Source of the DNA: Catajapyx aquilonaris
Lineage: Eukaryota
NCBI GenBank assembly: GCA_000934665.2
Contig: JYFJ02002296.1
Location: 1 to 60,026 of the forward strand
Reading direction: 5' to 3'
DNA: 60,026 bases
In this document: one piece after another, positions 8,617 to 60,026 of the stretch
Position numbering within the stretch: position 1 is the first letter of the stretch
How the letters are laid out: the number at the start of each line of letters is the position of its first letter
Notes under the pieces: model-generated
The model's database searches: none
What the model was told of the DNA's origin: nothing
What the model saw: only the letters and a program-made list of their open reading frames with translations
Position numbers and translations under genes: made by a program

Positions 8617-8794
8617 TTGATGTGCCTGTACATATGAATAGCAGGCAGGCTGCAATTCGCTTTGCAATTAGGCTTCAATTATTATTGTGCATTACTTTTC
8701 GTCTTTAAAAAACAAATGGAATTGCACAGTTCGATTTGATTGATTTCGAGTCGAAGGAGTCGTCCAGATTGATTGGGAGAAGCCTGGGTTTGCC

Positions 8795-11646
8795 ATGGCC
8801 CAGAGGAGATGCTGCGTCTCCGGATGTTCCAACAGCGGCAATGAGAGAGCATCAGCCGCAATAAGCATCACTGGAGAAGAAGAGTTCAATTACTTTCCTT
8901 TCCCAACAGCCGATTACGACCAGTTAGTCAAGTGGATGTGGGCCGTGGTTAATCCGGGTTGCTCCCTGGTGTGCTCCAGGCACTTCAGGGATTCAGACTA
9001 CGTGGCCATCAACAAGGGCACGTCGTCAGGTTGCCCGACGCTCAATGCCGATGCCGTTCCGATGCTCAACCTGCCTCAAGGTAACTCCAAAAAAAAAGGT
9101 TTTTATGATCATAATGCGGATAATTATTACGGAATGAAAAAACCTTGGGTTGTCCAAGGTGAACAACGTCTTGCGATTGAAGGTCAATATGAAAGTAATA
9201 AGCTTGAGCCATTCCAATAGTAACAATTATATGACATGTGTTTATTTTAAATTATTGTGTTATTCAATAATTATTGTTTACATACTAATTTCATGCAATA
9301 TGCCTGTAATGAATTTTTTTAAAAATAATCATAAAGATGTCCAGCCAAAAAACATGTTTTATTTGTACATTTTATAAAGCCAACATTTCGTGATCTGGAA
9401 TTATGTGGCTTTCATTGTTTTCTTCCAGAAGATGCCCTGTTGTCTTCCGTACAGACAGCTTTTCCTGAATCAGCTTTTCCTGAATTTGCAATTCCGCAGC
9501 ATAACGATGGGCCACAAAAAATTTCAGAAGAGGTACATCAGGACAAGCCGTTGCTGTCAGCACTGGATGAAAATAATGACCAAGTTTTAGATGAAGCGAC
9601 AGATAAGTATGTGGCATTGAACGACAATAAGTTAATGCGGTACTACCAAAAATACAGCTTGCCTCGATAAATGGTCGACGTTCAATAACAATTTGCTCTG
9701 TTGTATGTTAATATGGTTGTTGCGACTAAAAAGCAAATCGCTGTCCATTTCTAGACGCTTAAAAAAACCTACATATTTTTTTTTTGTATGTCTCATATAT
9801 TGTTACCCTTCGCAGGTATGCAGGTGACCATACTTACCAATTCGCCAATGAAGCTCCAGCACTTCCGCTGCACTCACAGGACGAGAGTGAGTCTTCTCGA
9901 CAAGAACCAGAAGAGCGGCATGTTGTTGTCTACGTTAAAAATCCTGATAGGATGACCAGGGAGGACGATTTCAATCGCAAAGTATGCGCAGGAAGTCATA
10001 TGTAAAGCGATTGTAACGAATTGCTAATTAAATTTCGATTGCAGGAAGACCGATTGGGGCGCATGGAAGTTAAAGAGGAGCTTGGAGATGGACAATCCAG
10101 GTCTGGTAGAAAGAAGTACAGATGCAGAGTTTGCGATAACTTTTTCGTAACAAGACAGGAAGTGGCCAGTCACCTGCGGATGCACCTTAAAAGACGTCAT
10201 ACACATCGAGCCAGAGGCGACGTTCTGTTAAAAGAATGTGAAGATGAGCTTGTTTTAGAGAAACACAAAAGAGTGCGCACTAAGAAGATAAAGAGGAACG
10301 ACGAAATGTATGAATGCGAGATGTGTGGGGAGTTGTTCAAGCAGAGATGGTCCTTGGTGATGCATTGCAAGATGCACAATAGACAGACGAATGTGTGCGG
10401 AACGTGTGGGAGAGTATTTGCGTACAATTCCGAGTTAACCAAACATCAGCGCGATCACCTCACCGACACATCAAACGTGCAAAAAGTCGACTTGATGTCG
10501 TTGTTGAACCTCAGTTGCGTGAACCTCGAAAGCGATGAACATACTGTGGCTTCAGGTGTGAGTAGCTCTCCTCACGTGACACAAGTGACTGAGGCATCAG
10601 TGTTGAGTTCAGATGAGATGACACATCTGAAGGACTTGGCTGTCGTATCTTCCGACTTCAAGACGGAGCAACTTGCATGCGATGAACTGTCCAGCGTAAC
10701 ATTGCTGGACAGTAGCATTACTCTTACTGAGCGTAAATCATTTGAGAAGCCGCAAGTTCCCAGTGGCTCAAAGTCATGCGTCCTTAAGATGTTCAGTAGC
10801 AGGCCAGCACAGCGGAAAGCATCAAGCGCCGCTCAAACTTGGGGCAAAGAGCTTTTCAAGTGCGACGTTTGTAACAAGAAGTTTTTTCAGAGTGCGTACT
10901 TGGAGAAGCATTTAAAGCAACACACACTGCCGTTTGGATGTAACGTCTGTGGGAAAGAGTTTGCGTTGGAGACGGAATATATTGCGCATCAAAAGTTGAG
11001 TCAGTTTAAGCAATGTAAACAGGAGGAGCCTATCTTGTGTGGTGTATGCGGAAAGACTTTTAAACATAAGGCGTGGTTAACGACTCATATGACGTCGCAC
11101 TCTGGAGAGAAACCGCATATGTGCGAGACATGCGGAAAGCAGTTTGTGTGGAATGCTTCTTACGCTAAGCATAAGAAAATATGCTCCAAATCTGGACAGC
11201 CATCGCATGCGATTGAGAAATTGTGTAAATGCGATATATGCGGAAAGGCATTTAGGGACAATTGGTCGCTAGAAGTGCATTTTAGGACTCACACCGGTGA
11301 GAAACCATACGTATGTGACACATGCGGGAAAGCGTTATCTCATAAACGCTCTTTGATCAAGCACCAGCGGATTCATGCTGGAGAGAAACCGTACGTATGC
11401 GAGACATGCGGAAAGCATTTCCACATGCTGGCGTCACTCAATTCTCACCGCACGATTCACACTAGGGAATGGAAGTACAAGTGCAACATTTGCGACAAGG
11501 TATTCCGCACTAGCGGGACACTAATGAAACATCACCGGACACACATCGGATTAGAGAAGCCATACTTTTGCAGCATATGTGACAGGAAATTCAAGAACAG
11601 ATCGTCGCTGATAACGCATCATAATAAGATGCATACTGGAATCTGA
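8795..11646 (+). CDS. THAP-C2H2 zinc-finger protein A (about 12 fingers)
   Basis: Exons 8795-9080, 9429-9606, 9816-9981 and 10045-11646 are phase-consistent. THAP pattern CCVSGC..FPFP..W..VCSRHF..AVPMLNL, DHTY motif, TGEKP-linked fingers; AATAAA at about 11702. Confidence 0.9.
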
Positions 11647-40670: not shown

Positions 40671-41476
40671 CAAGCTCATGCAGGAAAAAGGAACTGCATC
40701 TTGCTAAAGCTGAAACGTTTTATCAGTTGTCCGGTGTTCCTCTACAATCCACATGACTACGGTGCACTGTAATAATAACCCACGTGTATCAGATATAAGA
40801 TTAGGGCATTCATCTATCCTCACAAATGATCAGGAAATTAGTGTGATCGATGAATCTATTATACACCTCCATGGGATGAGCGCGACTATTGGTCGTCTAT
40901 CTCTATAGACTCCAGAATTATTATTATAGTTGGAAATTGGCGCTGTGTCCGTACTACTTTCATGTTGTTTCCAGTCCTGCTTTCCAGCTGCAGCTTTTCA
41001 TGGTGTTTCCAACCCTGCTAATCCGGCCCCAAGTGTGTCCAGATGCAGTGGATTTCTCTCTTCCCCCCTCGTTCGTCCTCCTGGCAACCCTTGTCGGGCC
41101 CCAATCGTGTGTGTCCGTCGGTGTCCGTCATTCTCCGACCATTTCTTTCTTTTTTAATTATATATATTTTTTTTATCCTCACGTCACCCCTCGCTCCCTG
41201 CCCTGCCTGCGCCACACAGACACACGCCACTATCCATCCTCCCCCGTGACCGCAGCAAGCAAGCAGAGGAGGTGTCCCACGTCGAGGTGGACAGTGTTGT
41301 ACGTGGTGTATGTGCACTCAGGAGCAGCAGAAGGGCAGCAGGGTGTGAGTGGTGGTGGCCTCGCCTGGCTTGGTGGTCGTCCGTCTAGCCCTCCTCCTCA
41401 GGTGCTGCACTTGTTGGAGGATCCCCACCTGAGAGAGAGAGAGAGAGAGAGTCCACCTGCTGTCACCCACGACATC

Positions 41477-44400
41477 ATGAGTCTCTCAGGTGAGTCATAC
41501 ACGTCAGCCACTCAACAATATTGTCGTGCCTCAGGAGGAGGGACGCGGTAATAATAATAATGCAGGCGCACTGCATTGCAGGCGTAGTGCACCGCGGTGG
41601 TAGGTGTAGGGATCGCAGTCCTCAGGGAAGTCCATGATGTCGTTGCACCTAGACAATGGGAATTGACTTGAGATGATAACGAGAAGGTTAAATAAAGAAT
41701 GGCCCTCTTTATTCAACAGTGCAGTTGTAGTACTCGCACAGGGAAACTATATGCACCTGGTCCACCAAACAATGAGTATACTTTTATCCATTGTGCGTTT
41801 TAGTCAAAGTTTGCAAGTTTTGTGACTCCAGCTGCTTTAGAACAAGAGCAAACATGGTCATTTGGGCCATTTTTAGGCGGACATGGTGATCAAAATGTTA
41901 TGCCACTGGCATGAACATAATGCGTTGGGTACAAACGTTATTTACTTCAAAGCGTTACACTGCAGGCTTTAATGTTGGTCGTAGCTGGCAGGGCATGAAG
42001 CAAGGTCATTTTAGAGTTGGGAAATGGCATCACGCCCCCATGAACAGTGAAGTCAAGTTACACAGATCCATCACATTGTCCAGTGTTGCATTTGTGCCTG
42101 GCATAAAGCTAATTACAAGTCACTATAAACTTCCCATGATAAGGTTAGACTAAGATCAAGTACCTCTAATAGTGAATATTAATAATAACTAGTTTTCCTG
42201 AGCTGCTACCTTGACCCTGACCGTGAACTTGCAAGAATGTAAAGCCGAAATGAAAATCCTGATGAAAACACTGCAGAAGCCATGCGACTGTTTCAATAAA
42301 TACGGAAAGCGAACATTCTTATCTTATTGCATTGCATTATACTGGGTGTTTCACTAGGAAGTTCCCGCAACGAATCAGTGGTATTTTTTTTTTGCACTCG
42401 ACCTAGAAGCGTGATGTTTGGTGTAAAAATTACCTTAGTTCGTGTGATTGTAGAACTATTCAAAATATAAGCTGTAATTGGCATTTGCCAACCGTGACAC
42501 ACTCGAATACGACACGACGCGAGTCTTCTTATTATTGCAGGTCCTCCCCAGCATATCAACATTAACAGTCCAGATTGGTGCACTTATGTTGCTGTCCCAG
42601 TCTTCTAATGTTGAGGTTTATGATTGGAAGTATTACTTTGCAAATATCACCATTTGCGGCTCTTTGGCAGGTAAAAACAGAATACCCTGTTTTCGCGCCA
42701 AACATCGTAGTGACTTTTTCTGGCGATTCCAGCAGTAACGTCAAATTTTTAATTCCTCTTAGGGAGGTCATCTGCCACTGCATTGGTGTGAAATACTCAG
42801 TGCAGCAATCCAGACTGTTAGTGTCGATATGCTGTGGAGAACCTTCAATAATAAGGAGAATTGCTTCACGTTGCGTTCGAGTGCATGTAGATGTCGTGAA
42901 GGTCAATTAAAGCATTTATTGTGAATGCTGGTATATTCCACATGAACTAAGGTACGTTTAAAACCAAACATTGTTTCTAGGGGCCGGTTTCACCAAGCCC
43001 GGTTTTCATGAAAAACTCGGTTCTTTTGGAAAATCCCTGCAAATAGAATAGGGATTTTCCGAAAGAACTGGGGTTTTTATGAAAACCGGGCTTGGTGAAA
43101 CCGGCCCTATGTTGGGTGGGAAAAAAAATACAGCTGGTTCTTTTGGGGGACTACATAGTGAAACACCATGTATTATACGATTGAAACATCTGAAAACCCT
43201 TGTGGATTTTTAAAATAATGTATCAGGGTTTTAATAATATTATTATTGGCACAAGAGTTTATTGCAGGGAGAGGAAAATAAAGGTTTAGCGACAACGAAA
43301 ACTGATGTAGGCTGTGCTGCTTAAAATAAAGTAGCCTGCAGAAAATATGAGAGCTAGTTCCTGAATCATTCAGATGATTGGCATCCATTCAGTAGAAGGG
43401 CTGGAAATTATGCATGGCATGTCAGAGACAGTTATGGGAAAGGGACTCTTGTTCGCCTTTGTATAATATAAAAAAAAATCCAACAAAAAAAAAGTCCTTA
43501 CATCAAGTACTGTAGTTCAACATTGATCGTCAATCTCAATCATTATTACAAAGAAGTACTGCCATCGTAAATTATTTGCACTTGGTTGGCACACTGAAAG
43601 TTTACGTGTAGATTGAAGAAGTTTTATCACTTGTGACTTCCTGCTTGTATCTGGTTTCTGGGGGGGATTCCTTCCTGCGGTTTGAATACCCCCCCCCCCC
43701 CCGACCATAACAACACTGTAACTTGGCATTGATTCAGCGGGACTTCCCATTCATGGGACACTTTATTCTGGATGAGAATGGGTTTTTGTCCCAGGTGATC
43801 AATAACTAAACGTGGGCCAACTTTTGAGGTCATGGTCAAGCTAGAAATAAGTGCAACTGCATTGCATGCTGTGATTGGCACGGAATTCAGACTGCCTTTT
43901 TTTTTCACTTGCTTGTGATGGGAGACGCCTCTCTTTTTTTTTTACATGGAACTGTTAGGTCTATGTTTAGAACCGCAAAAACAAACACATATAGTATTGG
44001 TTGCTCTGTTTTCTTTTTATGAAGTTGAGGTTCAGTGTACTTCAAAATTTCCATTAGGGTGCCCTACTGCAATGCAGTATGTAGGAAGTAATTACTCTGA
44101 TGATTATTATATGGCAGTGAATATGTCATGTAATAATAATTGCTTTTTATTGTAGCTCTGATTAATTGACTGTTCACCCATTTGTGATTACACTGCTGCA
44201 AGCATGGACATTACTAGTTTTATTTCATTGACAGAACTGTACCTAGCTGTAATGCAATGAATTTATTTAATTGCACTGGGTGTGTGGTTACATTTTACTA
44301 ACACTTGTTTCTGTCTGTGCAGATTATCAGGGACAGGGTGAGTTTAATTAAATTTCAATTTGGCATGAAAACAGTACATTTTCTGTGTTTTTATCACTCA

Positions 44401-47400
44401 AGCTATTTAAAGCAGTGGTTCCCAACCTAAATCTTCGTGGTAAACTATCCTATAAAATTTATTGCAAGTAAAAATTATTACCGCGACCCAGAGGTTGGGA
44501 ACCACTGATCTAAAGTGTATTAATATAATTTGGAACCTGGTAACACTTTATTGTAATTCCCTCATGTGCAGCTTACCAGGAACAGGGTGAGCAGTAATAA
44601 GTGTAGTTATTTTTTCAAGTACAGCATGCTTCAAAGAGTGACTGCTTACTGATAGTTCTTTTAATTAATTACTCTTGATTGGCCTCCACTTGCATGAAAT
44701 TGTACTGTATTTTCTATCTGCGCAGATTACCAGGGACAGGGTGAGCTATTTATTAATTTTTACTTGAAGTCATTGTCATTTGTTTTAGTCGTATTGTGCT
44801 TCTGAACTAGATCTGTGATAGGTCACAGCCTGATAATTCAATAGTACAGTTTGTTTTGTAGCATTGTTCATAAGTTGCATGATATTGTACTGTGATTCTA
44901 TTTGTGCAGAATACCAGGGACATGGTGAGTTATCACGTTGCAATCTTGCCTATTGTAATACTGTAGTAACAGAGGATCTGGTTATTCTTGCTGCTTTAGC
45001 TGTTCAATTTCAGTTATTAAATGTGCATGATATGCAATATTGTTATCTGTGCAGATTACCAAGGACAAGGTGAGCCAATAAAATAATCACTATTATTATT
45101 ATTAGTAATAGTAACCTCAGGTACCCGATCGTAGTTGTAGTGCTTAATATTGATGTAGTAACCCAAAATGCAGCTTGGTAACATGGACACTGTTCTAACT
45201 ATGTGTTTCCATGCGGTTAAGGCAATTATTGTCCTCTTAGAAATATTCGGAAACAAATATTTTACCTTTTGGGATCGTGCAGTCTTCAAATATTTAACCC
45301 TCACGTTGCAGTATCTTTTATTTTGACTCGGGTCATTTTCGCAGGTGCTAAATTTGACTTAATTGGAAAATCAATGGCACCCTGAAATACCCCCTTGATT
45401 GTCAGCATGAAACATTACCCCAATGACACTTGTTCTGACCACCTGTGGTGCTATCATTTAATAATAATTTAAAAAACCCTTGCTATGACCTTGGAATAAT
45501 TAAATGCAAACCGATGCATTAGATTTAATTAAAATTAGTGTTTCAAGAACATTATATACTGTTGTACTGCTTTTACAGCAAAAAGTGAGTTGAAACACAC
45601 AACTTCACCCTGCGTAGAGTCAACAACACTCGTGCGCTCCCCTCCACATCTTGCTTTCCTTTTTCCCCCCGTTTGGTAACTACTATCGTATTTTTAAATA
45701 TTGGCCCCTGTGTTTGACTCTAAATAACTCCCAGGAAAATGGTCCAAAAAAATAACGTTACACATCGTTAGAAAGCTGGTTTAAATCTACGTGCGAGTTA
45801 TTTACCTACCCTCATCGTGTAATTATAGTATTATGCATCTTATTTTCACTAACTAATATTTTACGTAAGTGTGCGAGGGCTTGAAATCCCATTCAAATTC
45901 TGACTGAACACATGTAAATGCTGCATAACGCTTTAATTTTGGTGGAGGGGCACACATTGACCAGGTGCTGGGATTCACCAGCATAGCCAAATGAAACTTT
46001 GCGTTTTGTAATCCTTATTTCTGTCTCTTAATGCAGACTACCTGGGACATGGTAAGTAGCCTACATGCCACAATGCTTGGTAATTCGGTAATAAATAGGC
46101 TCGGCCTAATTAAATTTTGCGCATTCCCATGATGCCAAAGCCTGTTGAGAGTGTGGCATGCAAAATTGAGTGCAATTTGATACTGACAAAGAGTGTAAAC
46201 AAGAGATGAAAAGAGTGGTGGTTAGCAGGTGCATAATTGAAGAGGTTTTAGTGCAAACCATGTTATGTGCACTTATTCTAATGCAGGTTAAGTGCAAGGT
46301 AGAAAAAAATATGCTGACGTGATTTTGTAAATTGTTTTGCAGACTTTCTCTGCAAATTAGTTCTAAGTGTCGAGCAATTGCAGTTTGGTAAAAGGAGTAG
46401 GTGAAGGGATTGGCATTTTTTCTTAGGGAGTATAACTTTCCCCCTTCCCTTTTTTTCCCCCCTTCCCACCTTCTCCACCCCTTTAACTCAAGCTCAGGTC
46501 CCTCACCTGTGCAGTTTCCACCTGGTTGATTCCATCCACATCCCCCCCAGCCCCCTCTTGGCTCTCCACCTCTCCCCCAACCCACCTCCACAAGACCACA
46601 TTCCCAGGTACAGTTACAACCTGTGACGTTGGCTTCCCTAATCTCACACTTATCACACATGCACACTACACTCACCACACCACCAAGACTTTAAACCCCA
46701 AGTGCATCTGCTGCACGCAGGTGGTCTTCAGTCAGTGCTAACCCTGATTTTGTACCCAACATTAGCGGTTAATATTTGCAACAGTGGCAAAAAAAACAGT
46801 GCGGTGATCTCAGTGCAGTTTCATCAGTGACCAGATGGCAGGGATTTTCTGTGACAAGTGAAGTCATGTAGGGAGCCTAAATTAGTGTTGCATTTAAAAA
46901 TTGAATGTGCGTTGAATCTGGTAGCTATAAAGTAATGCAGTTAGTGCATGATCCGAGGAAATGTCAATAAGCAATTTGGGTAATTGAGATTTCTTTGAAA
47001 AATGTGGGCTCGTCGGCAGAGCAGTGAATCTCAGGACAGGAGCTCTTTGAGTGCTTCCCCGGGTTTGGACGACTACCAGGAGGACCCTCTTCCTGGCCTG
47101 AGATCTGGTGACAGTGAGGACAGTAGTGTTGAAGAAGGTGGGGGAGTGGTTGGGGAGGAGGAAGAGGGGGAGGAGGATGGGTGGGAAGATGTCGGGGGTG
47201 GGTATGACAGTGATGGGGTGAGGGTTGAGGCAGAACTGGAGGGGGATGGGGTGGTCAGGGTCAGGTTCGAGGACCTGGGAAAGCCTGGCAGGCCGCCCAG
47301 GATATCCAGTCCAGGACTATTCAAGAGGTTCCTCGCACTTGTACAAGGTAGAGAGAGAGAGAGAGAGAGGAATGGTACCGAGGTGGAGGGATGTTTTCAT

Positions 47401-50400
47401 TCACCCTGTGTGATAAGGTATTATCAGCGACACAGAATATCCAACACGCCCCGCTTAGGAAAACATGAAAATATGCCAATCCTAATAAGCGTGACCTTGA
47501 CTTGAAATCATGAATTGCGGAAGAGTGATATCAATTGAAGATAATTTCATGCAGTTTGTGTCTGCAGTCCTGAGATTGCATTCGTGACCTTGCTTCACTT
47601 CATAATTAGTCACCTGACATATCTGTCAATATTGTAAATTAAAATGTACAGGTAGTACCGCTTTTACAACATCGGAATGCAATATTTTTGCAAAATCTCC
47701 AGAAATGTTTTAGAAGCAGTGTCACAACCTGATTGTTTTGCCTCAGAGAAAAGCCTCCATTGTTTCATCTTCATCCACAAGCACTAGTGACTAAAACTGG
47801 AGCAGAATTTGTGCTGAAGTAGAGCATATAAAGTGGAAATGGATGGAAGTGGCTTCTTAGGAGAAAGGAGAATGAAGTGAATTGTTAGGACATCATTGAG
47901 GATAAACACTGGGAAAGTTCCGCAAGTGCTGGCCATAAGGATATTGTTCCGCCCATGAATTGGAAATGTGTGTGACCACTTGAAATGCTCTTTATTTTTA
48001 ATGCTGATTGGCAGTTAATTATTACATATTAAAAACGTCGTGTTTTTCATTCTCTTAGTGAAGTTAACAGAAGCTGTTAAGGCCAAAACACAAAAAGATT
48101 TTGCGGCAGCGTCAAGCGGCAAACGCCTGCCCCGCCAATTATTATTAATTAGTGGCAATAATAAATATAAATAATAAATATGCCGCAACGCATGCCGTTT
48201 GCTGCGCGTTTTTTTTTTTTTTTTTTGTGAAATGGCCTTTAGAGCGAGAGAGATTTCGGGAAGATAGAAAACCCATACAAAAAGTTTGCTATAAAGTCAT
48301 ACTATACATAATTTGAGTTGGCACATGTAAATCAGTTGGAACTGTGCTAAGGCATAGGATGTGTTCTAGCATGGAGAGCATAAATTTCTCATAGCATTTG
48401 CAAATCATGAGTGGTGGCATTGAGGCTCGGATTTTAAATTTTCTTGATGTCAATACCCTACTTGCTCGTAGCTTTCCCCCCCGATTACGCAGACGTGACG
48501 TAAAATACTGTAGTTATCGTGGGCCTGACCATAGCTGCTGTTTCTACCTGGTAATGATCTAGAAAGTTGACAACAACAAACTTCAGCAAGCACTTAGATT
48601 ATCCTACGCACTACTGAGAAAATGATTATATGTTTATGCTTGGATGATAAAAGTAATGTGGTTTGCCTGCGTTGCCTACAACACGTGATTAGTACAAATG
48701 AATCCTGAAAACCATCAGTACAGTGTTGCATGTCTTTCAGGAAGCATTGCATCGAGGAGTTTTGAACATTTCAATTCAATGCTCAAATGAGGGAGATGAT
48801 ACCCCATCAGCTGAGAGTTTTTGAATAATACATTTTTATGCTGCGCCGTGCATAACCTAAGAACATTGCTAGCTCATTGCGAGTTAATTACGACATTATT
48901 CCCTATGGATATGCACTCACAGGTCTAATGACAGCTGATATCAGTGAATGGTTTTAAGCAAGAAATTCCTGGATGTTGGATTCTGATGATGATTTTTATT
49001 GACAGCGGAAGAAGCGATGGAACCTGGTAATGGAGATGGCAACATGGCAATGGGGGTGGGTCCCATGGAGCACACGGGACCCGCTCAAGTCCTCCTGTCC
49101 CCAACATCCCAAGCCGAACTGGAGAGGAACAGAGAAGAGTGGAAGCTGGAGCTGGCACAGGTTGAGGAGGAGATCAACACACTCAGGCAGGTTCTGGGGG
49201 CTAAGGTGCTGAGGTCGCAGGAACTCAAGAGGAAGCTTGGAATCACCGTCTGGAGGGAATTCCAGGACGACATGTCACAGGGACTCAAGAATGTCAAGGA
49301 GTCCAATGTGTATGTATTTCATATAGTTTATTGGGATGATCATTGTGGTGTAGGAATAAGCGTGTCGTGAACAGCAGTGAATACTGCACTCATGCACCAA
49401 AGGGTTGCATGTGCACTGTAAGGTCGGATAGTCCCCTTTTTCTTCTTTTTTTCTGACAAAAAAACTGGTGGCCATTCACTCCAGGGGGTGGCTTTCAAGG
49501 CCAGACCAATGGGGTTGGAGCACCTCTGAAGTCATGTCAATTTTTTATAATGAAGATTGCTCAAATAATAATATATTGGTATAGGTAATTGTGTCATTGC
49601 ACGTTTCCTCTGCATTCTTATGCCACATCAAGGGATACTTAAAATGTATGGACTGAAGTGAAGGCATGAATTCTGATATAATTGCTTGGCAGCCGTGATC
49701 ACACTTCATCAGGATTAATTTCTAGTGGTAGCTATGGGTAGGCATACATTATCATCTTCATTTGAATCATTTTATTTGTACGAGGGTGACTCAAAAAGTA
49801 ATAATATTGGCAACTTTTTAAATTCTGAAGCTTCACAACAGAAACTGAAACTGACATTACATATGAAAGGGCAAGCCTTTCTCTACTTTTAGACGTAGTC
49901 ATCATACTATTTGGTGCACTTGTCCTACCGGGACTTGCCCTTTTTTATATGTGCATGTCAGTTTCAGTTTCTGTGGTTTCAGAAATAAAAAAAGTTGCCA
50001 ATTACTTTTTGATTCGCTCTCGTAAATTGAAATATCAATCTCATTATCATCAGTCACCATTACATCATTTCTCATGTCAGGGACAAATCAGAACAAGTTA
50101 AATTGCAAAATGTGAGTGAAAAAGTGAATCTACTATCAATTTTGTAGGGGTGGCATTTGATCAAAAATATATAAAGTCCAGAACCTGCTTTGTCAAGCAG
50201 GTCTACGCGCAAAGCTATAAACTTGTGGAAGAGGCTGCTTGGTCCACTCTACAATGTCCATTCAGTTGTGCAGATGGTGTGCTATAGTGTATATTTGTAG
50301 AACATCATAAACATTCCTTGCCGCATGCAATGAGGAAGTTGTCAGAGCACAATGCACTTTTGTGTGAATAGTTGGCTGCTACTCTAGGTCCAAGAGTAGT

Positions 50401-53400
50401 AAAGTTGTTTAGGCTACTTTTTAGGTAACTGTAACTGAAGGAGAAGATGCTGGTAAAACCAGATAGGAAAAAAAAGAAGTGCTATAACAATGGTGGTGAA
50501 ACATGTGCAATGGATTTTACATTAGGCCTTGTTGGGCAGGCACACCCCACTCCTATGTACGGTCGTGAGCATAAAGATGTGGACTAGACCAAAGCTCTTC
50601 CTCTGCCTAGATTACATGCGCATGCATCTCTTGGATGAGAGCACTTTTGGCTGCAAGTTTTTTCCCCCCTTTGAACATCTACCTCATTTTCATTATTGCT
50701 TATATTGCCACAAATTTATTACACTTTTTCCTCGTTATTAGACATGACAAAGGAAATTTTGCTTTCACAGGGGAAATCTGCAAACTTGACATATATTACA
50801 ACCGAGAATATCATTGCAACTAGTCCCACAGTTTCTGTCAATCCTGTGCCTGCAGCACATCCCACAATAGCCGAAGCTCACGTACAATAGAAAATGATTG
50901 GCGTCATGAATGCAAACCACAAAACAAGTAATCCATGCTGAGTTACGAGGTCACATATCAGTTGTCTTTTTCCCCCCCCTCTGATCCAGATGTACAATAC
51001 ACACTTGCTAGGTTCAGTATGCATTCCAATACCTCAATCCGTGACTCACTCTACTTAACGTGGATATCATGTTTGTACCCTACCTTTCTCTGTAAAGAAG
51101 TACTCTTAAAAATCTTCAACAAACAAAAAAAAAAACCATTTTATTGGTACATGTGCAAGTGTGGCTAATTAATATTCCTTGTTTGATTTAGAGTGAAGAT
51201 TGCAATAATTATTTGCACTCAGTTACTTTTACATTGTAGATAGAAATTTACAAAAATATGTGCATGGCTCAGGTATTATTATGCTTTGGTGGCAGCTTAT
51301 TTTGTGTTCCACGAAGTTTATTAATGTGTCACACTAGATCTATTTGGGTTTTTAGATCAAGGAAATGTGGTTGTGGCTTCTGCGCAAGAAGAGAGATCCA
51401 GACAGACGTGGCTTGTTCGTGTCAAGTTTGGACCCGATTGTGCTACTGGTGATGGTGACAGGGTAGTTCAAAGGGGCTGCATTTTCATGCACTGCCCTAA
51501 GCCATGGCATCGAAGTTAGAACAGTGCTCGTTGTGTCATATTGTGTCATGCTGTACCTGAGGCCAGGACTGTCAATGCCCAGTACTATCGCAACTTCTTG
51601 GAACACCTGAGAGTAGCGATACAACGCAAGCGACCGCACTACCTGAACACCAGCCCTATCGTGTTGCACGATAATGCGCCTTGCCATGTTGCAGCTGCAG
51701 CAAGATACCGATTGCTTCGTTGGCGATGATAAACACTGGAGCACCTTCCCTACTCTCCAGACACGAGAAGTTGCGATAGTACTGGACATTGACATTCCTG
51801 TTTCGCCACATCGATTTTCAACCAAGAGCCATGGCTTAGGGCAGTGCACGAAGATGCAGCTCCTTTGAACTACCCTGTCACCGTCACCAGTAGCACAATC
51901 GGGTCCAAACTTGACATGAACAACCCCATGGCTGTCTGGATCTCCCTTCTTGCGCAGAAGCCACAACCCCATTACCGTGCGCAAGGGGAACAGGATGACC
52001 ACTATTTAAAATCCAACCCTCATATGTAAAGGTGACTTAACTTACATAGATGTGAATGATCCTGGGTGTAATTTTTTATCTCTTATTGCTAACTTGCTGT
52101 GTGTAGCATACAGATAATAGTGGGCTATTGCAGGGAAGGGGCTAATACTTAATACTGCAGTTGAGACAAAATAACCACCCAGCACAAGAATCAAGTAACA
52201 AAGTGATACATTTGTAACATGTTGCCAGAAGTAGCCAGAATTAGTATCATTCGGAGGCTATGTTCTCAAATTTCTGGTGCTGTAATTGAATTTCAGTTTT
52301 AAGAAAATTGAAGCGATGATTTTTCATTATATTATACACTCAATGTTACTGTATGTGTTTGTTCCTTGTATGCTTCTATTTGTTTGCAGATTGATTTTTC
52401 GCATGCAATTTCCTGCATGGTTGATGGCCCTTTCTTAATTTTTTTGTGTTACTTTTCAACACTTCTTGCTTGGCAGATATGTAAAAATGGAGGAGAAATT
52501 CTCTGATTTCCATCAGGCGGTTACGAGTGCACCCTTGTAAGTCTTTATTGTTATTTTAAAATCAAAATTGAATATAATGAAAGTTTCACATAACAATACA
52601 TGTATTAGATGTGTGTGGTCTTGTTGACGTGACAATTTCAGTTAACCGCAATAACAAAGTGAACTTATCACAGACTAGGTGTACTCTGTGGCCATAAAGA
52701 CAAATATGGTGCATGTTGCAATGAGATTACTGGAATGCCTGCAGATGCCAGTGGATATTCAGTCCGCTGCTGTATTTTTGCACTGGATGTAAGGCATTGC
52801 ATACACACAGTGCCTTGCAGCATGAATTATTATCCTCATCTTTATGGCCATAATAATGGCCCATACACACAGGCCGTCGGCGGTTTTGGTTTTTGGTTGC
52901 ATTTACGCCGCGGACCAATCATGACCCATGTGAACAAGCTCTAAACAATGGGTTGCGCTTGTTTACACGAGTCATGATTGGTCCGCGGCGTCAACACGAC
53001 CAAAAACCAAAACCGTCGACGGCCTGTGTGTATGGGCCTTAATACATAGAAAATTGTGAGGACCAGTGGGAATAGATGTGCTGCTCGACTGTCATGGAGA
53101 GGTGAAAAAGAGTTCATCAATGTTGCAAAATAATGTCTTACTTAGCGGTGCAGGTTTATGTTGAATCCAAATATATTGTGCTCACAACAACCCCTTTTCC
53201 CCTGCAGCCGTCCCTATGACAATTTCATCACTTAAATGTGTTTGATATTAACATTGTTAAAATGTTGGTTAACAGTGACTAAACATCAAATTAGTTGGCT
53301 AGCAATGTATGAACCAGGTAGTGATTTTCCTTTCATGTTAATTTTTAAAAAGTAGTGATTGCTTTGGATGCAGGAGTTTATTATCAGTACAGTCTGTGTT

Positions 53401-54211
53401 ATTAGTAGAGCTTGATTCTCAAAATTCCAATATCATATGTTTCTCATATTCCAATGTTGTTTGCTGCTTTAATTTTGGCTGCAATGTACTGTACAAGATC
53501 ATAGAGGTGGAGGACCTTATGGGCAGTTTGAGGTGTCTATTGCACTGAGGGCCGCTTGTTTTGTTCAATTAACATGTGTATAATTCAGTTCATAAGCATT
53601 GACATTGTTGTGCTTGGCAGGTACCAGAAGACAGAATATGCAGTGAAGGCAACTGCGGAGAAGACAGCAACACTCCTCGGAGGGTTGGGCCAGAAGCTGG
53701 GCGCACTGAAGAATTCCGATTCGTTCAGGTCCATCGAAGAAAGGGTCTCCACTACTGTCACCTCCGTCAAGGTTCGTGTACATCTTGAATCAGATCAATT
53801 TGGTCATTTTTTATTTGAAAATGTTAATCACAAAGTAACGTGCTTTATTATTAAATAGGACTGTAATTGTGTATTTGTCATTGTCAGTTGTCATTGACAC
53901 ACAGAGATGGTGGCAAGACACTTTGAAACTCTGGCCTTAAAGCCAACCAAGTTTGACTCATGTTTTTGAAAGATGGGTCCCGATAGAGACAATGAACCAG
54001 GGTCAGAGAGTGCAAAGAGGCATAATTACGCATCCTAAAGTACGATGCCACTTCCCTTTTCCAGTCCAAGATGGGTGGTTCCCGCTCGAACTCAATGCAT
54101 GGTTTTGACGAAGCTGTGGCAGCCCACGAAGCAACGTTGGGAGGAAAGTCAGCCAACGGGACCCCAACTGCCACCACACCCACTTCCATCCCTGAAAACA
54201 AGCCACTCTAG
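41477..54211 (+). CDS. TPD52-like: Tumor protein D52 family protein
   Basis: Exons 41477-41489 (MSLS, phase 1), optional microexons, 49006-49309 (EEWKLELAQVEEEINTLRQVLGAK..ELKRKLGITVW), 52477-52536, 53621-53771 (YQKT..LKNSDSFRSIEE) and 54065-54211; all phases are consistent. Confidence 0.92.
42981..43107. mobile_element. PIF/Harbinger-like palindromic MITE
   Basis: About 58-bp arms gggccggtttcaccaagcccgg...ccgggcttggtgaaaccggccc; flanks tag/tat. Confidence 0.8.
44323..46051 (+). CDS. Six paralogous 15-nt microexons of the TPD52-like gene
   Basis: 44323-44337, 44572-44586, 44726-44740, 44910-44924, 45055-45069 and 46037-46051; each is bounded by gcag and gtgag/gtaag and is phase 1-1. Confidence 0.85.
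44413..44507. mobile_element. hAT-like MITE
   Basis: TIR cagtggttcccaacct/aggttgggaaccactg; 8-bp flanks atttaaag/atctaaag. Confidence 0.85.
47002..47347 (+). CDS. Probable alternative first coding exon of the TPD52-like gene (acidic N-terminus)
   Basis: ATG-initiated 115-codon acidic frame ending CAA G|gtagag; phase 1 matches the acceptor at 49006. Confidence 0.6.
48080..48238. mobile_element. Harbinger-like MITE remnant
   Basis: aggccaaaacacaaaa / ttttgtgaaatggcct termini with tta flanks. Confidence 0.45.
49781..50022. mobile_element. Mariner-like MITE
   Basis: TA-cgagggtgactcaaaaagtaat ... attactttttgattcgctctcg-TA. Confidence 0.8.
51367..51969 (+). mobile_element. Mariner transposase remnant with internal inverted duplication
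   Basis: TVNAQYYRNFLEHLRVAIQRKRP..IVLHDNAPCH, flanked by ~140-bp inverted copies (about 51367-51508 and 51828-51969). Confidence 0.85.
52857..53039. mobile_element. PIF/Harbinger-like palindromic MITE
   Basis: ggcccatacacacaggccgtcg...cgacggcctgtgtgtatgggcc; TSD TAA. Confidence 0.85.
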
Positions 54212-56746
54212 TTCACTTCATGAAGATTCAAAGCCATAAAAAGCATTCGAAAATATACAAAAAAATACTAATTAACAATGTTGAACTGCATATACAGGTT
54301 ACACTTCCAAATTTAATGTGCCTTTTTGTTTTATGTTTTTTGTTTTTCCCCTACTTTGGCTCTCAGAGGGTTATTTTTTCATCCCCAGCTGCCATTTTAG
54401 GATCTATTTAATCTCCCCTCTATCACATATAATTATATTCACACTGTTTCAACTTACGAGGGGGATTAATTAGTGCTTTTTGGGGGTTCCTGTGCTAGAG
54501 CATATTTAAACATGGAAAAAGTAGCGCGTGGGGTGTGTACTAGTGGGAAGGTCCAAGTGCAAAGTGTTTTGCCTTATTATTGCTGTGTTGGGCTTAATTT
54601 TATTTTTCTCTCCTATGGAATCGTAACTAAGGGGGTTGGGTGGGTGGGAGGGAGGGTGGGAGGGATCTGAATCGACTTTGAAGTGCAGTTAATTATGCGT
54701 TTGCTGCAGTAGGATTATTGAAACGGGGGTATAAATGGTGAAATTTATTGTGGTAACAATAAATGTGGGCGTCGTGTCTGCCCTGAACAGCAATGCGCCT
54801 CTTTATTTTGCCCCAGACCACTGGAGATGTGATCTTGGTCCAAGTGATGACTGAAGAACGAAGACTTGATGCCCTTGTTTGCTTCTTCTTGCACTGCATT
54901 TGTTGCTTTTTTCAGGGTAGTAGTTACTGCATAATTATACAGTATAATTTTATTGTCATGTGGCTGAGAATTTATAGTCCAGGAAAGATATGGAAAAAAA
55001 TAACCCCCATAAAATTGGGATAGAAATGAGAAATGAAAATCTTCTTCCCCCCAGCATGTCAAGGGTGATGGAGGACACGTCATTATTTGGGCTGTCCACT
55101 TTAGTTGCATAGACTCTGTCTTGGAGTTGTGGAAATGCGAAAATAATATTCAGCATGTCCAGCACGTCGTCTGTGATCAAATTAAGTTCAGCTAACCACC
55201 ACACAACTTGCGTTTCCCCCTCTGTAGATGCTATGTTTGCATCTTCCAACAGCATTCCCCACAGGAGCACCACCGCATCACATTGGCCGTTCCAAAAATT
55301 AAGGATCAAACTTGATGAGTCTCCAGACTGCTTAAGGACATCGCTTGGAATTTTCAGTGTCATCCACACACTCTGCAATCTTGTACGCAAAATATAGCCA
55401 CATGTGTCGCTTCGAGGCGTGCCAAACTTTAAATTGTGGTTCTGCATGAAAATATTCATGTAAACATTCTAAATGACATGAAATTCTGGCTTATTTTCGT
55501 CATGTAACATTTTGTGCATGACGCTGACAGAAAGATTTTCAGGAAAATAATAATAATTTTCCTCTTGGTTACTCTGACACGCTGTGCAATACACATACAG
55601 TATATGCCTAATATATTTTTATAATACACCGGTATATTTTGTGTTCAGAGGAATACTATTTTGCTTATGGGGGGCATTAGATTCAAACACGACCAATTTA
55701 AGATTATCATGATTACGCATTTTATTGGGTAACCAATTAAAAATGACCATACATCATGATGGCATAAGCGCTTCTTGTTTCTTCTTTCAGCTCAATAAAT
55801 TATTGGAAAACGATATCAGAGGACCAATTCCGACCCTGCCAGGAAACATGTTATGGGATGGAATGCGGCAGAAATTATACGTAGGAATAGCCTTTTTTTT
55901 ACCGTTGCGTTGTCAAGAATAAATGACTTATGATAATAATAATAATATTTACAGTCTCTTTTCCAGCTTAATTCCAGATTGTATGCGGAATATTATTACT
56001 CTAATAATTGGCAAATAAACCAGTCGCATTCGGTCAAGCAATAGTTCAATTATTATCAATGTACTCCGAAATTTTCACGCCAACAGTACTGTACATATAG
56101 GAATCTACTACATTCTTGCAATTATTATCCTATTTAAAAATCCCACACCGAATGAATGACTACAACAGATCGTGCTATGAGAGTTCGTAGCAGATATTTT
56201 CAGCCATTCGCAACAATATTTATTACCCAACAATATTGATAGCACATGTTCTCGGTGAGTAATCTGCAATCATCAGTGACGCAAACCAGGAGCAAGAATA
56301 ATATTATTTTGCTTTATTCCATACAACCTCTTGCACTATTGGTATGGGAATAAAGAATATATTATCCCCTACCTATACCATGCGACATCATGCTGCTGCC
56401 TGCGCCAGGTTCAAAACAGCATAAATTTTTGAAGGCGAAAAGAGCAGCAAATATGCATATTTCATCTGGTATTAGGGTATACAAGTAAAGCGTATGTGCT
56501 AATCGTAATCAGCCTAACCGACTCCAAGGGGATTTAACTGAGGCAAGAAGCAAGTACAAGGACAAAATATGTTCAAGAGTACTCCCGATGCGGCTGTATA
56601 CTGACACTGACAAGTCGTCGCCCAGTCATCAATCACAACGACAAACCTGCATGACTATGCATCGTCGGCATTTTATCTGGTGAGATGGGGCTGAGTCTTG
56701 ATCTTATCACCAAACAAATATCACCAAACAAATCGAGGTGCCTAAC

Positions 56747-56820
56747 CAGTGGCGTCGCTAGGCCGGTGCGGGGGGTGCGGACCGCACCGGGTGCCACCCT
56801 CAAAGGGGGTGACACCCAAG
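56747..56820. mobile_element. hAT-like transposon end fragment
   Basis: cagtggcgtcgctagg start followed by a GC-rich hairpin; no partner TIR found. Confidence 0.4.
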
Positions 56821-56914
56821 TGATGTGTGAAATTTTTTGGAACCCTTGAGAGAATGTATGCTTTCTTTGCGGCTTCCACACATCGATGGAAACTACGGAA
56901 ATAATTTAAAGGTG

Positions 56915-57550
56915 TACGAGGGGTGATCAAAAAGTTCCCGGACTGTCGATATACCGTGAAATCCAGTGGAGGTACGAACTTGTGACGTTAGGGGGCGCTA
57001 GGTACACCTTTCATCTATTAGCCTGAAAAATTTCGTCTTCAAAGGTGCACATGTTTCCGAGTTTCGGCAGTTTTCTTGACACCGTGTTCTTGTGCTTCTG
57101 CGATTTTTCGAAATCGCTTATGTTAGGGAGCAAAAGATTTGAAAATATTTCTTCCAGCTCAACAAAACTTCGGATGCAACCAACCGAATGCTGAACAAGG
57201 CTTTTGATGAGCAAGTTGTAAGACAAGCAATAACATATATGAGTGGGTTAACAGCTTCGAAGGTGGCGCGTCAAGTTTGCAGCAAACTCAACTCAATAAT
57301 GCTGATCATTTTCTTTCACATTTTAGGAATTATGCATGTGGAGTTTCTCCCTCCTGGTAAAACAGTCAACGGCAAGTATTAGGGCCTACTGGGATGGTTT
57401 GAGACGATCAAATGGCCGGAGATGTGGAAGAACATATAGACTGGTTGCTGCACCATGACAATGCCGCCTGCACACACCTCACGCGTAGTCAGGGACTTCC
57501 TGATATAAAATAACATGACCACTGTTCCCCACCCTGCATATTCGTTGGCC
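56915..57550 (+). mobile_element. Degenerate mariner element
   Basis: TIR-like tacgaggggtgatcaaaaagttcc; frameshifted motifs HVEFLPPGKTVNGKY, WLLHHDNA and VPHPAYS. Confidence 0.85.
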
Positions 57551-57746
57551 AAGGAGGTACTCACTTCGGTACTCCGGTGTACACCTGCAGTGGTACTCTT
57601 TGGTACTCTTCGGTACTCCTTAGGTATACTCCTTGGTACTCCCTGGTGCTCCCTGGTGCTCCCAGACAATAAACAAAATAATATGCCTCTAACTTCGGGA
57701 GCTTTTCCCTCTGGTGTCGTGCTTCCAATCCCAAGGGGCTAAAAAA

Positions 57747-57815
57747 TGGTGCCGGGGATCGAACCCGGGACCTTTCACATGCAACGCGAACGCTCTACCA
57801 CTGAGATACACCCCC
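57747..57815 (-). pseudogene. tRNA-Ala(TGC) pseudogene or variant
   Basis: Reverse complement GGGGGTGTATCTCAGTGGTAGAGCGTTCGCGTTGCATGTGAAAGGTCCCGGGTTCGATCCCCGGCACCA followed by T6. The 3' acceptor strand is 3 nt short and the D-stem has a mismatch. Confidence 0.8.
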
Positions 57816-59815
57816 ACTTCGTAGAAGTTATTTCTTCATTACGAGGAGACCTATGAACATGTTCATAACACATAATATTGAACATAATTTCATGTAGGGT
57901 GACACCATGTCCAAATCTCCAAAAGAAGGGCATAGATGCTTTGTATAGGCTGTGTACAATATACACACTATTATACTAATAAATACGCCTTTTTTTTACT
58001 TCAGCATAACCGAATCTACGATTTCAAACGTCCTATTTAATGTCTCTGTCTCTATAAAGTGAGTGACGACCAATAATTTCACAACTATCTGTTCTCTTCC
58101 TCAGATGCAGGACAGAGCTCCTGTTCACGTGAACCCCCTGGAGGAGGAGGAGAAAGAAATGCAGAGAGGAACGCTCGAAGGAATATTGAAGCACCGTCAT
58201 CACCGTCATACCTAGCAGAATCTACAGATCTATACACGTATGTGCGATTAAACAGATTAACTTTTTTCATATAATGCGTGTTGTGCCCATATCTGTGGAT
58301 CGGAAAAAACAAAAACAAGCTTGCTAATAAAGAACCTTAATTATCCCTCAATAAATTCTTCCTCGTTGAGATTCCAGGTCAATTACGAGTAATTTCGGTG
58401 TGCCAGGTCTTCAGGGAGGCAAGTACAGTATATTATTAAGGAAATTTAGAATAAAAAGGCTTCAATTTTATAGCATGTCATTGCATCTAAACATTAAAAT
58501 CCGTTACTCCAGTATTCGTTCGAGTTAAACATTGGCCTGTATTACAGTACTAGCTAATTACCCGCACATGCAGTAGATATTTGTCATGTGTTGCATTGGT
58601 CTAGTGGCTAATATGGAGCTAATAATGGCAAAAAATTGAATCTAGATAATGTGCGTTATACCTGATTTTCAGACAACCCAGTTCACAACTGCATCAGGTA
58701 CTATCAATCTCGTTGAACCATTCGCAATGCTTAATTGTAACCAGGAACCTCCCATTAAATGTGCATAATAAATGTTTCAAACAGTCGGCATTATTCAGTT
58801 ATTATGTTTTCTTTTAACTGATCCACGTTCATATTTTTAGATAAATTTTTTTGACAATTTTTAATCCTTCATTTTGTACTCGTCAACACTACAGGATTGT
58901 AGGTGAGCGCTTTCTTCACATATACTCGAGCAGAGTTAGTTATCTTTTCTTCATATTAATTTCTTCATACTGATCAATTAATTATTGGCTCTCGGAGCGA
59001 TCCGCAAGTATTTTTTCAATAGAGCAGGATTTTATCTATGACATGTTTTAAGCGCTCTAAAAACAATGTGTATGCATGGTATACACAGCAAATTGTGTAC
59101 TGCATTGTACTAACTAATGTACATAAGGCAGTACACAATGTGCATTTAAAAAAAAAATCGCAACGCTGTGTACCATAATTATATACACGCTGCTTTTGAG
59201 AGAGTACCCCTTGAAGTATCAGTTCGAGAGTAACATCCTGTGATGATGGGGGTACTGCAGACAGAATAATTTGGGAACAGTTTCTTATAATTTTTTGTTT
59301 GTTTTTGACGAGTGTGAGAGTCGATGCTCTTCATGTGTGGGAACCTATTATTTTCTTTTAGTGGACATGTCCCTTTTTAGGCCTTCTGTAGCAGGTATAG
59401 GGTGGCCATTTCCAAATCTTCAGAAAGAAGGACAACGCTGGTAGGTACATCGTATATATGCTTTATACAGTACAATACATTGTGTGACCCATGACCTCGG
59501 GTCACACCCTGACTAGCTCAGTAACGCAGGTTCAGTTGAAGAAAGATGTCAGACCGTTGGGAGAAAAGGGTGGAAGAAGTGGCGGGTAAAATTGGAAAAG
59601 CCGCGAAAATAATGGTTTCAGATAACATACTGTATAATGAATATGCCTTTTTTACTTAATATAACTGAAACACAAATTATCACATTCTTTTACTTATTAG
59701 CACACTAATAAGGCTAAAAAATGTAACCTAAATCAAATATTTTATGGTGATTGTTGAATTTTGTGGCGCCCTTTCTTTACAATAAGTACATGCTGGAGAG
59801 AGTGTCAGTATCGAA

Positions 59816-59882
59816 GTAGCGCAGTGGTCTAGTGGTTAAGACTCTCTCTTCGTGACCTGACGGTTGAAGGATCGAATCCTGA
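59816..59882 (+). mobile_element. Degenerate tRNA-derived SINE head
   Basis: A-box tggtctagtgg and B-box-like ggatcgaatcc without a complete cloverleaf. Confidence 0.5.
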
Positions 59883-60026
59883 AAGGAAGACGTCGTTTCT
59901 TTTTATCGCTATGGACCTTTTCCGCTGTTACTACTTCATCTCTCATTTCACATTTATTTCTCTTTGAGGTGCATCTGGTAAATAGGCTAGACCATTCCAA
60001 CACCCACACTCTCGTTGCACCAGAGC

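Follow-up and report, generated by a model that had tools for sequence, protein, structure and literature searches.

The stretch of DNA analysed here, the 60,026 nucleotides of contig JYFJ02002296.1 from Catajapyx aquilonaris (hereafter the window), contains a gene of the TPD52 family, and the 7.5-kb first intron of this gene holds six closely similar 15-nt units, each enclosed by a splice acceptor and a splice donor. An initial annotation, made from the letters alone, had proposed that these units are microexons building a tunable pentapeptide repeat. The six 15-mers that it quoted were all found as given, on the forward strand, in an array that spans 1.73 kb and is confined to a single strand. 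The units are the following, each with the peptide obtained upon reading in phase 1:

44323-44337 (+), unit 1, ATTATCAGGGACAGG, DYQGQ
44572-44586 (+), unit 2, CTTACCAGGAACAGG, AYQEQ
44726-44740 (+), unit 3, ATTACCAGGGACAGG, identical to the consensus, DYQGQ
44910-44924 (+), unit 4, AATACCAGGGACATG, EYQGH
45055-45069 (+), unit 5, ATTACCAAGGACAAG, DYQGQ with two synonymous changes
46037-46051 (+), unit 6, ACTACCTGGGACATG, DYLGH, followed by the donor gtaagt

The splice sites vary little along the array. The acceptor reads TGCAG at five of the six units and GCGCAG at the remaining one, while the donor reads GTGAG at five and GTAAG at one, which reproduces at every unit the gcag acceptors and gtgag/gtaag donors described previously. 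Each unit is preceded by a pyrimidine-rich tract, with a pyrimidine fraction of 0.59-0.71 over positions -20 to -4. The branch-point sequence reported ahead of the first unit is likewise present:

44296-44302 (+), TACTAAC branch-point consensus before unit 1, the branch A of its CTAAC lying 22 nt ahead of the exon

The length is constant at 15 nt in all six units, all are of phase 1-1, and none contains an in-frame stop. The proposed phase match with exon 1 and with the acceptor at 49006 holds for each of them, and translation in the phase-1 frame returns the predicted series of pentapeptides (DYQGQ, AYQEQ, DYQGQ, EYQGH, DYQGQ and DYLGH). Since the units, the donor of exon 1 and the acceptor of exon 2 are all phase-matched, any subset of units keeps the reading frame. 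Regarding the properties by which microexons are recognised, six AG...GT-bounded segments of at most 30 nt thus lie inside the intron on the strand of the gene, and the frame is kept upon inclusion as well as upon skipping. The introns between consecutive units measure 234, 139, 169, 130 and 967 nt, and the first of them contains the following element:

44406-44514, 23-nt inverted repeat, 91% complementary, its arms separated by a 63-nt loop

This 109-nt segment looks like a small hairpin-type insertion; if it was indeed inserted, it would explain why the intron between units 1 and 2 measures 234 nt rather than 130-169 nt.

TPD52 is a coiled-coil adaptor of small transport vesicles. The assignment of the host gene to this family, already made in the initial annotation, is borne out by the product of exon 2, which matches Pfam PF04201 (TPD52) with 55.2 bits against a gathering cut-off of 25 (E = 1e-14). 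A protein search with the same product returned 143 proteins with E <= 0.001, and those listed carry PF04201. Its best relatives are insect TPD52/D54 proteins, with 55-79% identity, and no protein closer than 79% identity was present in the searched collections. Judged by these matches, the source animal is probably an arthropod. The exon structure is supported by contigs of the one public run in which exon 2 was found, here called X1. Its record kind is unstated; the contigs are spliced, with three GT..AG joints, and were treated as RNA-derived. Placed on positions 41000-60026, such contigs show which forms are present but drop rare variants. Among the joints listed are 41486>49003 (GT..AG; a cut displaced by +3 corresponds to 41489>49006), 49309>53621 and 53769>54063. 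The exons, which in the host gene are of ordinary size (151-304 nt), are as follows:

41477-41489 (+), coding part of exon 1: ATG plus 10 nt, ending ATGAGTCTCTCAG in phase 1, with the donor gtgagt at 41490 and the 5' untranslated region (UTR) upstream
49006-49309 (+), exon 2: phase-1 start, start of the TPD52 domain, contig joints at both ends
53621-53771 (+), exon 3: joints 49309>53621 and 53769>54063 (cut +2)
54065-54211 (+), coding part of exon 4, with the stop TAG at 54209

Joined as in the contigs, with all six units skipped, exons 1-4 encode 204 amino acids, and with all six included they encode 234. The short isoforms of insects comprise 178-230 amino acids and start with MSxxS(T)AEEA, that is, with exon 1 followed directly by exon 2; judged from the sequence, the product that skips all six units would correspond to this short insect isoform. 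A (GA)10 microsatellite occupies positions 41431-41451 of the 5' UTR, 26 nt before the ATG.

In addition to exon 1, the gene has a second candidate first exon, which the initial annotation does not mention:

47002-47347 (+), alternative first exon 1b: own ATG, 115 codons plus 1 nt, ending in phase 1 with the donor gtagag

The segment is read as an alternative first exon because it has its own ATG and because no in-phase acceptor was seen upstream of 47002-47347 when the sequence was read for one. The long TPD52 isoforms of insects carry an N-terminal extension with which it shares homology (BLASTP E = 7e-07 against P0156; VRVRFEDL...FL.LV), and it holds GLDDYQEDPLPG, which corresponds in this gene to the SLEYEEDCYY / SLEFIEDPYLP motif of insects. 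In this respect the gene resembles insect TPD52/D54, where a short N-terminus (MSxxSTAEEAP...) and a long one (with the SLEYEEDCYY extension) are found, here represented by exon 1 and exon 1b; it differs from them in its array, the insect isoforms retrieved being devoid of a Tyr-pentapeptide repeat. With exon 1 ahead of them and exon 1b behind, the units can enter only transcripts that start at exon 1. Exon 1b is without cover in the contigs of X1, a single run, and this absence is not counted as evidence. An (AG)10 microsatellite begins two bases past the GT of the exon 1b donor. The likeness of the units to the DDYQED codons of exon 1b, which leaves 6 mismatches in 15, was not accepted as a sign of where they came from.

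At the level of sequence, the strongest argument for the units as exons is the pattern of conservation from copy to copy, a comparison that involves paralogous copies of the array and not orthologues. A MAFFT alignment of 216-nt windows was set aside because neighbouring windows overlap, and anchored and pairwise comparisons were used. The mean pairwise identity is 1.00 at the acceptor AG, 0.80 over the exon and 0.84 over donor positions +1 to +6; it is 0.50 over positions -20 to -4 and 0.25-0.29 everywhere further out, on both sides. Upon gapped local alignment, the 45-nt core composed of acceptor, exon and donor gives z values of 6.2-23.8 in all 15 pairs, a score reached by none of 200 shuffles. 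The flank from -110 to -23 stays at shuffle level in 13 of the 15 pairs (p of at least 0.115), the exceptions being units 3 and 4 (p = 0.015) and units 5 and 6 (p = 0.03). The flank from +9 to +96 does so in 14 of 15 (p of at least 0.12), with units 1 and 6 as the only exception (p = 0.02). Exon and adjacent intron are thus conserved beyond the neutral level between paralogous copies, and the earlier statement that length and tyrosine are invariant while the introns diverge is upheld by both the identity profile and the pairwise alignments.

The substitutions within the units follow the predicted reading frame. Interior exon positions 3-12, which lie outside the splice-site consensus, show 4 differences in 60 cells. 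When the 10 differences from the consensus are assigned to codon positions in the predicted frame, 0, 3 and 7 fall on the first, second and third position, respectively (binomial p = 0.02). When the 9 distinct changes are counted, six are third-position changes (p = 0.04), and the other two frames give third-position counts of 0/9 and 3/9. Furthermore, the tyrosine is retained through a TAC/TAT change. Because the shared core extends over only about 45 nt and 7 of the 10 differences are in third positions, this pattern argues for selection on the splicing signals and on the coding frame. Since the duplications, neutral sequence has thus had the time to become random, yet acceptor, exon and donor were kept in all six copies.

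The array is also well delimited within the window. A degenerate 23-nt pattern (CAG, the unit and GTRAG), with at most 2 mismatches, has exactly six matches in the 60,026 bases, both strands included, and 0 matches in any of 100 dinucleotide-preserving shuffles. Independently, a repeat search groups the six as the largest direct-repeat family, D1 (38 nt; spacing 249, 154, 184, 145 and 982). When the 15-mer is searched for by itself, with as many as 3 mismatches allowed, nine matches are obtained in the window; these are the six units and, where 1.27 are expected by chance, three matches with 3 mismatches, none of which matches the 23-nt splice-site pattern with at most 2 mismatches:

7614 (-), 15-mer with 3 mismatches
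33003 (+), 15-mer with 3 mismatches
46600 (+), 15-mer with 3 mismatches

The last of these (46600-46614), located 563 nt downstream of unit 6 and without splice sites, is probably a chance match, or else a decayed seventh copy. The unit is not dispersed within the 60-kb window, where the dispersed repeat envisaged by the initial annotation as a competing possibility yielded no copies beyond chance. A scan of metagenome contigs with the 23-nt pattern gave four isolated single matches in unrelated contigs (G+C fraction 0.43-0.67) and no array.

Regarding possible regulatory features, TGC occurs within 7 nt of the acceptor in all six units (at -5 in five and at -7 in one), while 26 of 134 intronic CAGs are part of TGCAG. 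The AG-free stretches at the units extend over 33-74 nt, versus 22-41 nt at three constitutive exons. An exact CUAAY, in the form CTAAC, is found near the acceptor of unit 1 only (1/6). Further motifs are located as follows:

44690-44708 (+), intronic element TTGCATGAAATTGTACTGT upstream of unit 3, containing TGCATG and 95% identical to 44875-44893 before unit 4
44691, 44876 and 45024, TGCATG, preceding units 3, 4 and 5 by 30-34 nt (unit 5 by 30 nt)
44363 and 44624, GCATG, following unit 1 at 26 nt and unit 2 at 38 nt

The distances of these (T)GCATG motifs, which we take to be possible Rbfox-type sites (GCAUG being the Rbfox site), are conserved, both for those ahead of units 3-5 and for those that follow units 1-2. 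Within the 900-nt core GCATG occurs five times, where the mean is 1.57, and 4.7% of windows reach five; the local enrichment is modest and suggestive only.

Taken together, these features make it, on balance, probable that the units are lineage-specific, regulated cassette microexons, which would insert zero to six (D/E/A)Y(Q/L)(G/E)(Q/H) units, and their sequence suggests that they are selectively maintained. An ancestral 15-nt exon would have been duplicated in tandem together with its acceptor and donor; the introns would later have diverged past alignability, with the pyrimidine tract, the (T)GCAG, the 15 nt and the GTRAG kept. Each included unit would place one pentapeptide after residue 4, ahead of the conserved AEEA with which the disordered N-terminal region leading up to the coiled coil begins. 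The default form would be the protein of 204 amino acids with all units skipped, inclusion presumably being restricted to particular cells or stages. Because UGC is present at every acceptor, with long AG-free stretches, short inter-unit introns and GCAUG nearby, microexon-type factors would be the likeliest regulators. As to the initial interpretation, the TPD52 host, the phase fit and the descent of the units from old tandem duplications, with nothing but the splice signals and the 15 nt preserved, all stand; inclusion of the units, on which it also depended, was not seen in the X1 contigs, and the "tunable" repeat number is inferred.

Several observations weigh against the interpretation of the units as regulated cassette microexons. 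The sole first-exon junction assembled is that from exon 1 to exon 2 (one X1 contig, depth 41.9), and inclusion of a unit in messenger RNA (mRNA) was not seen in the X1 contigs of this single run. The letters between the two sides of the exon 1-exon 2 joint are marked "not known"; the contig of exon 2 starts at 49003, so that CAG precedes exon 2. This CAG agrees with the last letters of exon 1, and equally with those of the intron, but with none of the six units, which end in AGG, ATG or AAG, and from it we infer that the joint is direct. Because the CAG fits exon 1 and no unit, the main form in the X1 sample presumably skips the array, the behaviour also expected of a cassette exon in the majority of cells. 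No joint touching any unit is among the X1 joints listed, an absence that we do not count as evidence, and the X1 cover is low (0.7-2.2) over 44175-46079, including an unspliced piece at 45369-45707. Among 287 proteins, namely the query and 286 relatives, none carries two or more Y[QLPHE][GEDAQS][QHNE] motifs or the spacing Y-x4-Y-x4-Y. With no repeat in the 286 relatives, none of them a close one, orthologous support for the array is therefore absent, and the array is at best lineage-specific. The codon-position statistic comprises only 10 differences between related copies, 6 of which change the residue. The regulatory motifs were inherited with the duplication, and the six copies are therefore not six independent observations. 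Finally, six site pairs of consensus strength naively predict constitutive inclusion, so that skipping would require active repression or dependence on an activator. The literature searched on TPD52 with microexons or N-terminal splicing gave no description of such an array; in a planarian study, tpd52 is merely named among the genes with stem-cell-differential exons.

The strongest alternative, possible though held only tentatively, is that the units lie outside the mature coding mRNA, either as RNA-level regulatory pseudo-exons (decoys) or as former exons now unused; in the decoy variant, the splice-site pairs would tune how the first intron is removed or which of the two promoters, that of exon 1 or that of exon 1b, is used. 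The exon 1-exon 2 joint, the only junction assembled across the array, agrees with this explanation, as do the lack of the repeat in all 287 proteins and the placement of the array between two alternative first exons. Moreover, the conserved core comprises hardly anything beyond acceptor, 15 nt and donor, elements that a decoy would need equally. A pseudo-exon would not be expected, however, to display a third-position bias in exactly the frame of exon 1 and exon 2 (7/10, p = 0.02, versus 0/9 and 3/9 in the other frames), to keep 15 nt invariant with no in-frame stops, or to retain its tyrosine through synonymous change, and a functionless relic would have decayed like the flanks.

It is very unlikely that the units form a mutually exclusive cluster, in which one unit per transcript would give six N-terminal variants. 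Homologous, equal-length exons in tandem are indeed what known clusters of this kind consist of. However, the inter-unit introns, at 130-967 nt, are spliceable and leave steric exclusion inapplicable, and the exons are symmetric, so that double inclusion causes neither frame shift nor decay. Likewise, no mechanism forbidding joint inclusion was found: no docking/selector complementarity was evident among the 25 longest of 43 inverted repeats, which is a weak test of pairing. A single choice would also add little diversity, three units encoding the same DYQGQ, and a form with no unit at all is already indicated by the X1 contig.

A slightly more improbable alternative is that the core stems not from a duplicated exon but from several insertions of a short sequence of dispersed or mobile type. 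Repeated insertion would give the unalignable flanks that are observed at the units, and the copy search covered the 60-kb window, not the whole genome. Against it, the six copies all share a strand, a 1.73-kb span and the host gene's reading frame; the other matches in the window are few (three with 3 mismatches, where 1.27 are expected), none of them fits the 23-nt pattern, and the metagenome contigs gave four lone matches and no array. Least likely of all is that the six units are constitutive in transcripts from exon 1: although their acceptors and donors fit the consensus in 6/6 cases, the contig joins exon 1 to exon 2 with a CAG that fits no unit, which is strong if not absolute evidence, and the relatives start with MSxxS(T)AEEA without an insert.

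For the preferred reading, that of regulated cassette microexons, the nearest parallel is offered by fast skeletal muscle troponin T, for whose mammalian 5' mini-exons Breitbart et al. (1985) is reportedly the reference. The closest known case is that of the seven P exons (Tx segment) of avian fast skeletal muscle troponin T (TNNT3), which are found solely in Galliformes and Craciformes and whose inclusion, beginning after hatching, is confined to adult pectoral muscle (PMC11016001, PMC7581897). Both systems consist of tandem units, each of which provides, or in TPD52 would provide, one pentapeptide near the N-terminus, and in both the default form is devoid of them; here the units are tandem duplicates placed in an N-terminal variable region, from residue 4 to AEEA. 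The two differ in gene and animal group, and in the repeat itself, which binds metal through His/Glu in the birds and is composed of Tyr/Gln/Gly in the present case. In addition, P-exon inclusion has been shown experimentally, while the TPD52 units are known from sequence; the 15-nt length of the P exons is deduced from one pentapeptide per exon. If its units are used in mRNA, the TPD52 array would be a further case of the kind known from the avian P exons.

A looser likeness exists to the 5' mini-exons 4-8 of mammalian fast troponin T, which also form a row of short frame-preserving cassettes encoding a variable N-terminal segment (PMC2447309, PMC11016001); exons 4-8 of mammalian TNNT3 differ in not being near-identical duplicates of one unit. 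For fast troponin T, 13 isoforms in mouse and 11 in chicken have been detected, far below the theoretical maximum (PMC11016001), and caution is therefore required as to the 64 forms envisaged by the initial annotation, a figure that comes from arithmetic and not from evidence.

Regarding regulation, the eMIC-dependent neuronal exons of Drosophila are described as having weak splice sites, strong branch points and short introns, together with extended AG exclusion zones and a UGC at a short distance from the 3' splice site (PMC8797185). The present units resemble such eMIC (Srrm234) microexons, known from Drosophila and mammals, in that UGC lies within 7 nt of the acceptor in 6/6 cases, in their AG-free stretches of 33-74 nt, which correspond to a long AG exclusion zone, and in introns of 130-234 nt in four of seven cases. 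They differ from the fly exons in their consensus GTGAG/GTAAG donors, where the latter have weak 3' and 5' sites, and the combination of weak sites with a strong CUAAY is lacking, an exact CTAAC being present at unit 1 only. The passage on eMIC in PMC8797185 describes no tandem array. Finally, the micro-exon genes (MEGs) of Schistosoma likewise contain runs of symmetric exons of 3-81 bp, the alternative use of which varies the protein (bioRxiv 10.1101/2023.06.21.545858). MEGs are, however, whole genes built mostly of microexons and encoding secreted parasite proteins, whereas the present array occupies one intron of a conserved intracellular gene, a TPD52 homologue with exons of 151-304 nt.

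Other features of the window lie apart from the array. Upstream of the TPD52 gene, a tandem gene cluster extends over 8744-38106 (+), each gene having an exon for a THAP domain and, behind it, arrays of C2H2 zinc fingers. The THAP open reading frames (ORFs) number six and are found at 8744, 12468, 17096, 21604, 29778 and 35137 (PF05485, 35.5-43.3 bits), and zinc-finger ORFs at 10006, 13339, 19790, 25654 and 36444. Between 38449 and 39935, long trinucleotide runs give rise to artefactual ORFs of poly-L, poly-Y and poly-N; simple repeats are abundant in this genome. Early in the first intron of the TPD52 gene, the region 42331-43181 contains nested large inverted repeats, with 85-nt arms at 42500/42799, 61-nt arms at 42331/43121 and 58-nt arms, 91% complementary, at 42981/43050, which are probably transposon remnants. 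Downstream of the TPD52 stop, at 56900-58800, X1 contigs reach depths of up to 158-362 and carry many substitutions and small indels, which suggests an expressed repeat or paralogue and not this locus.

The array may also be read in a more far-reaching way, which we regard as rather unlikely. In that case TPD52 would have gained, in this lineage, a splice-programmable valency module, in which the cell-type-specific factors eMIC/Srrm234 and Rbfox, acting through the UGC and GCAUG motifs, set the number of tyrosine "stickers" or phosphotyrosine docking sites on the disordered N-terminus through zero to six exons, thereby tuning self-association, vesicle clustering or signalling. Each exon would contribute an acidic-Tyr-x-x-Gln unit; the motif Y-x-x-Q fits four of the six. 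If true, TPD52 would provide the first example outside muscle troponin T of a tandem microexon array that works as a graded dial of repeat number.

Exons this small escape ORF-based and most automatic annotation, as stated for plants in PMC8831610. Should the units prove to be unused, the array would still be an unusually clear case of intronic splice-site pairs preserved by selection. If they are used, it would represent a rare natural case of a protein repeat number set at the RNA level by equal-length microexons, for which the avian P exons are the sole close precedent found, and a compact system for the handling by the spliceosome of consecutive exons too short for exon definition, and it would allow the effect of a graded tyrosine-rich insert on a vesicle adaptor to be studied.

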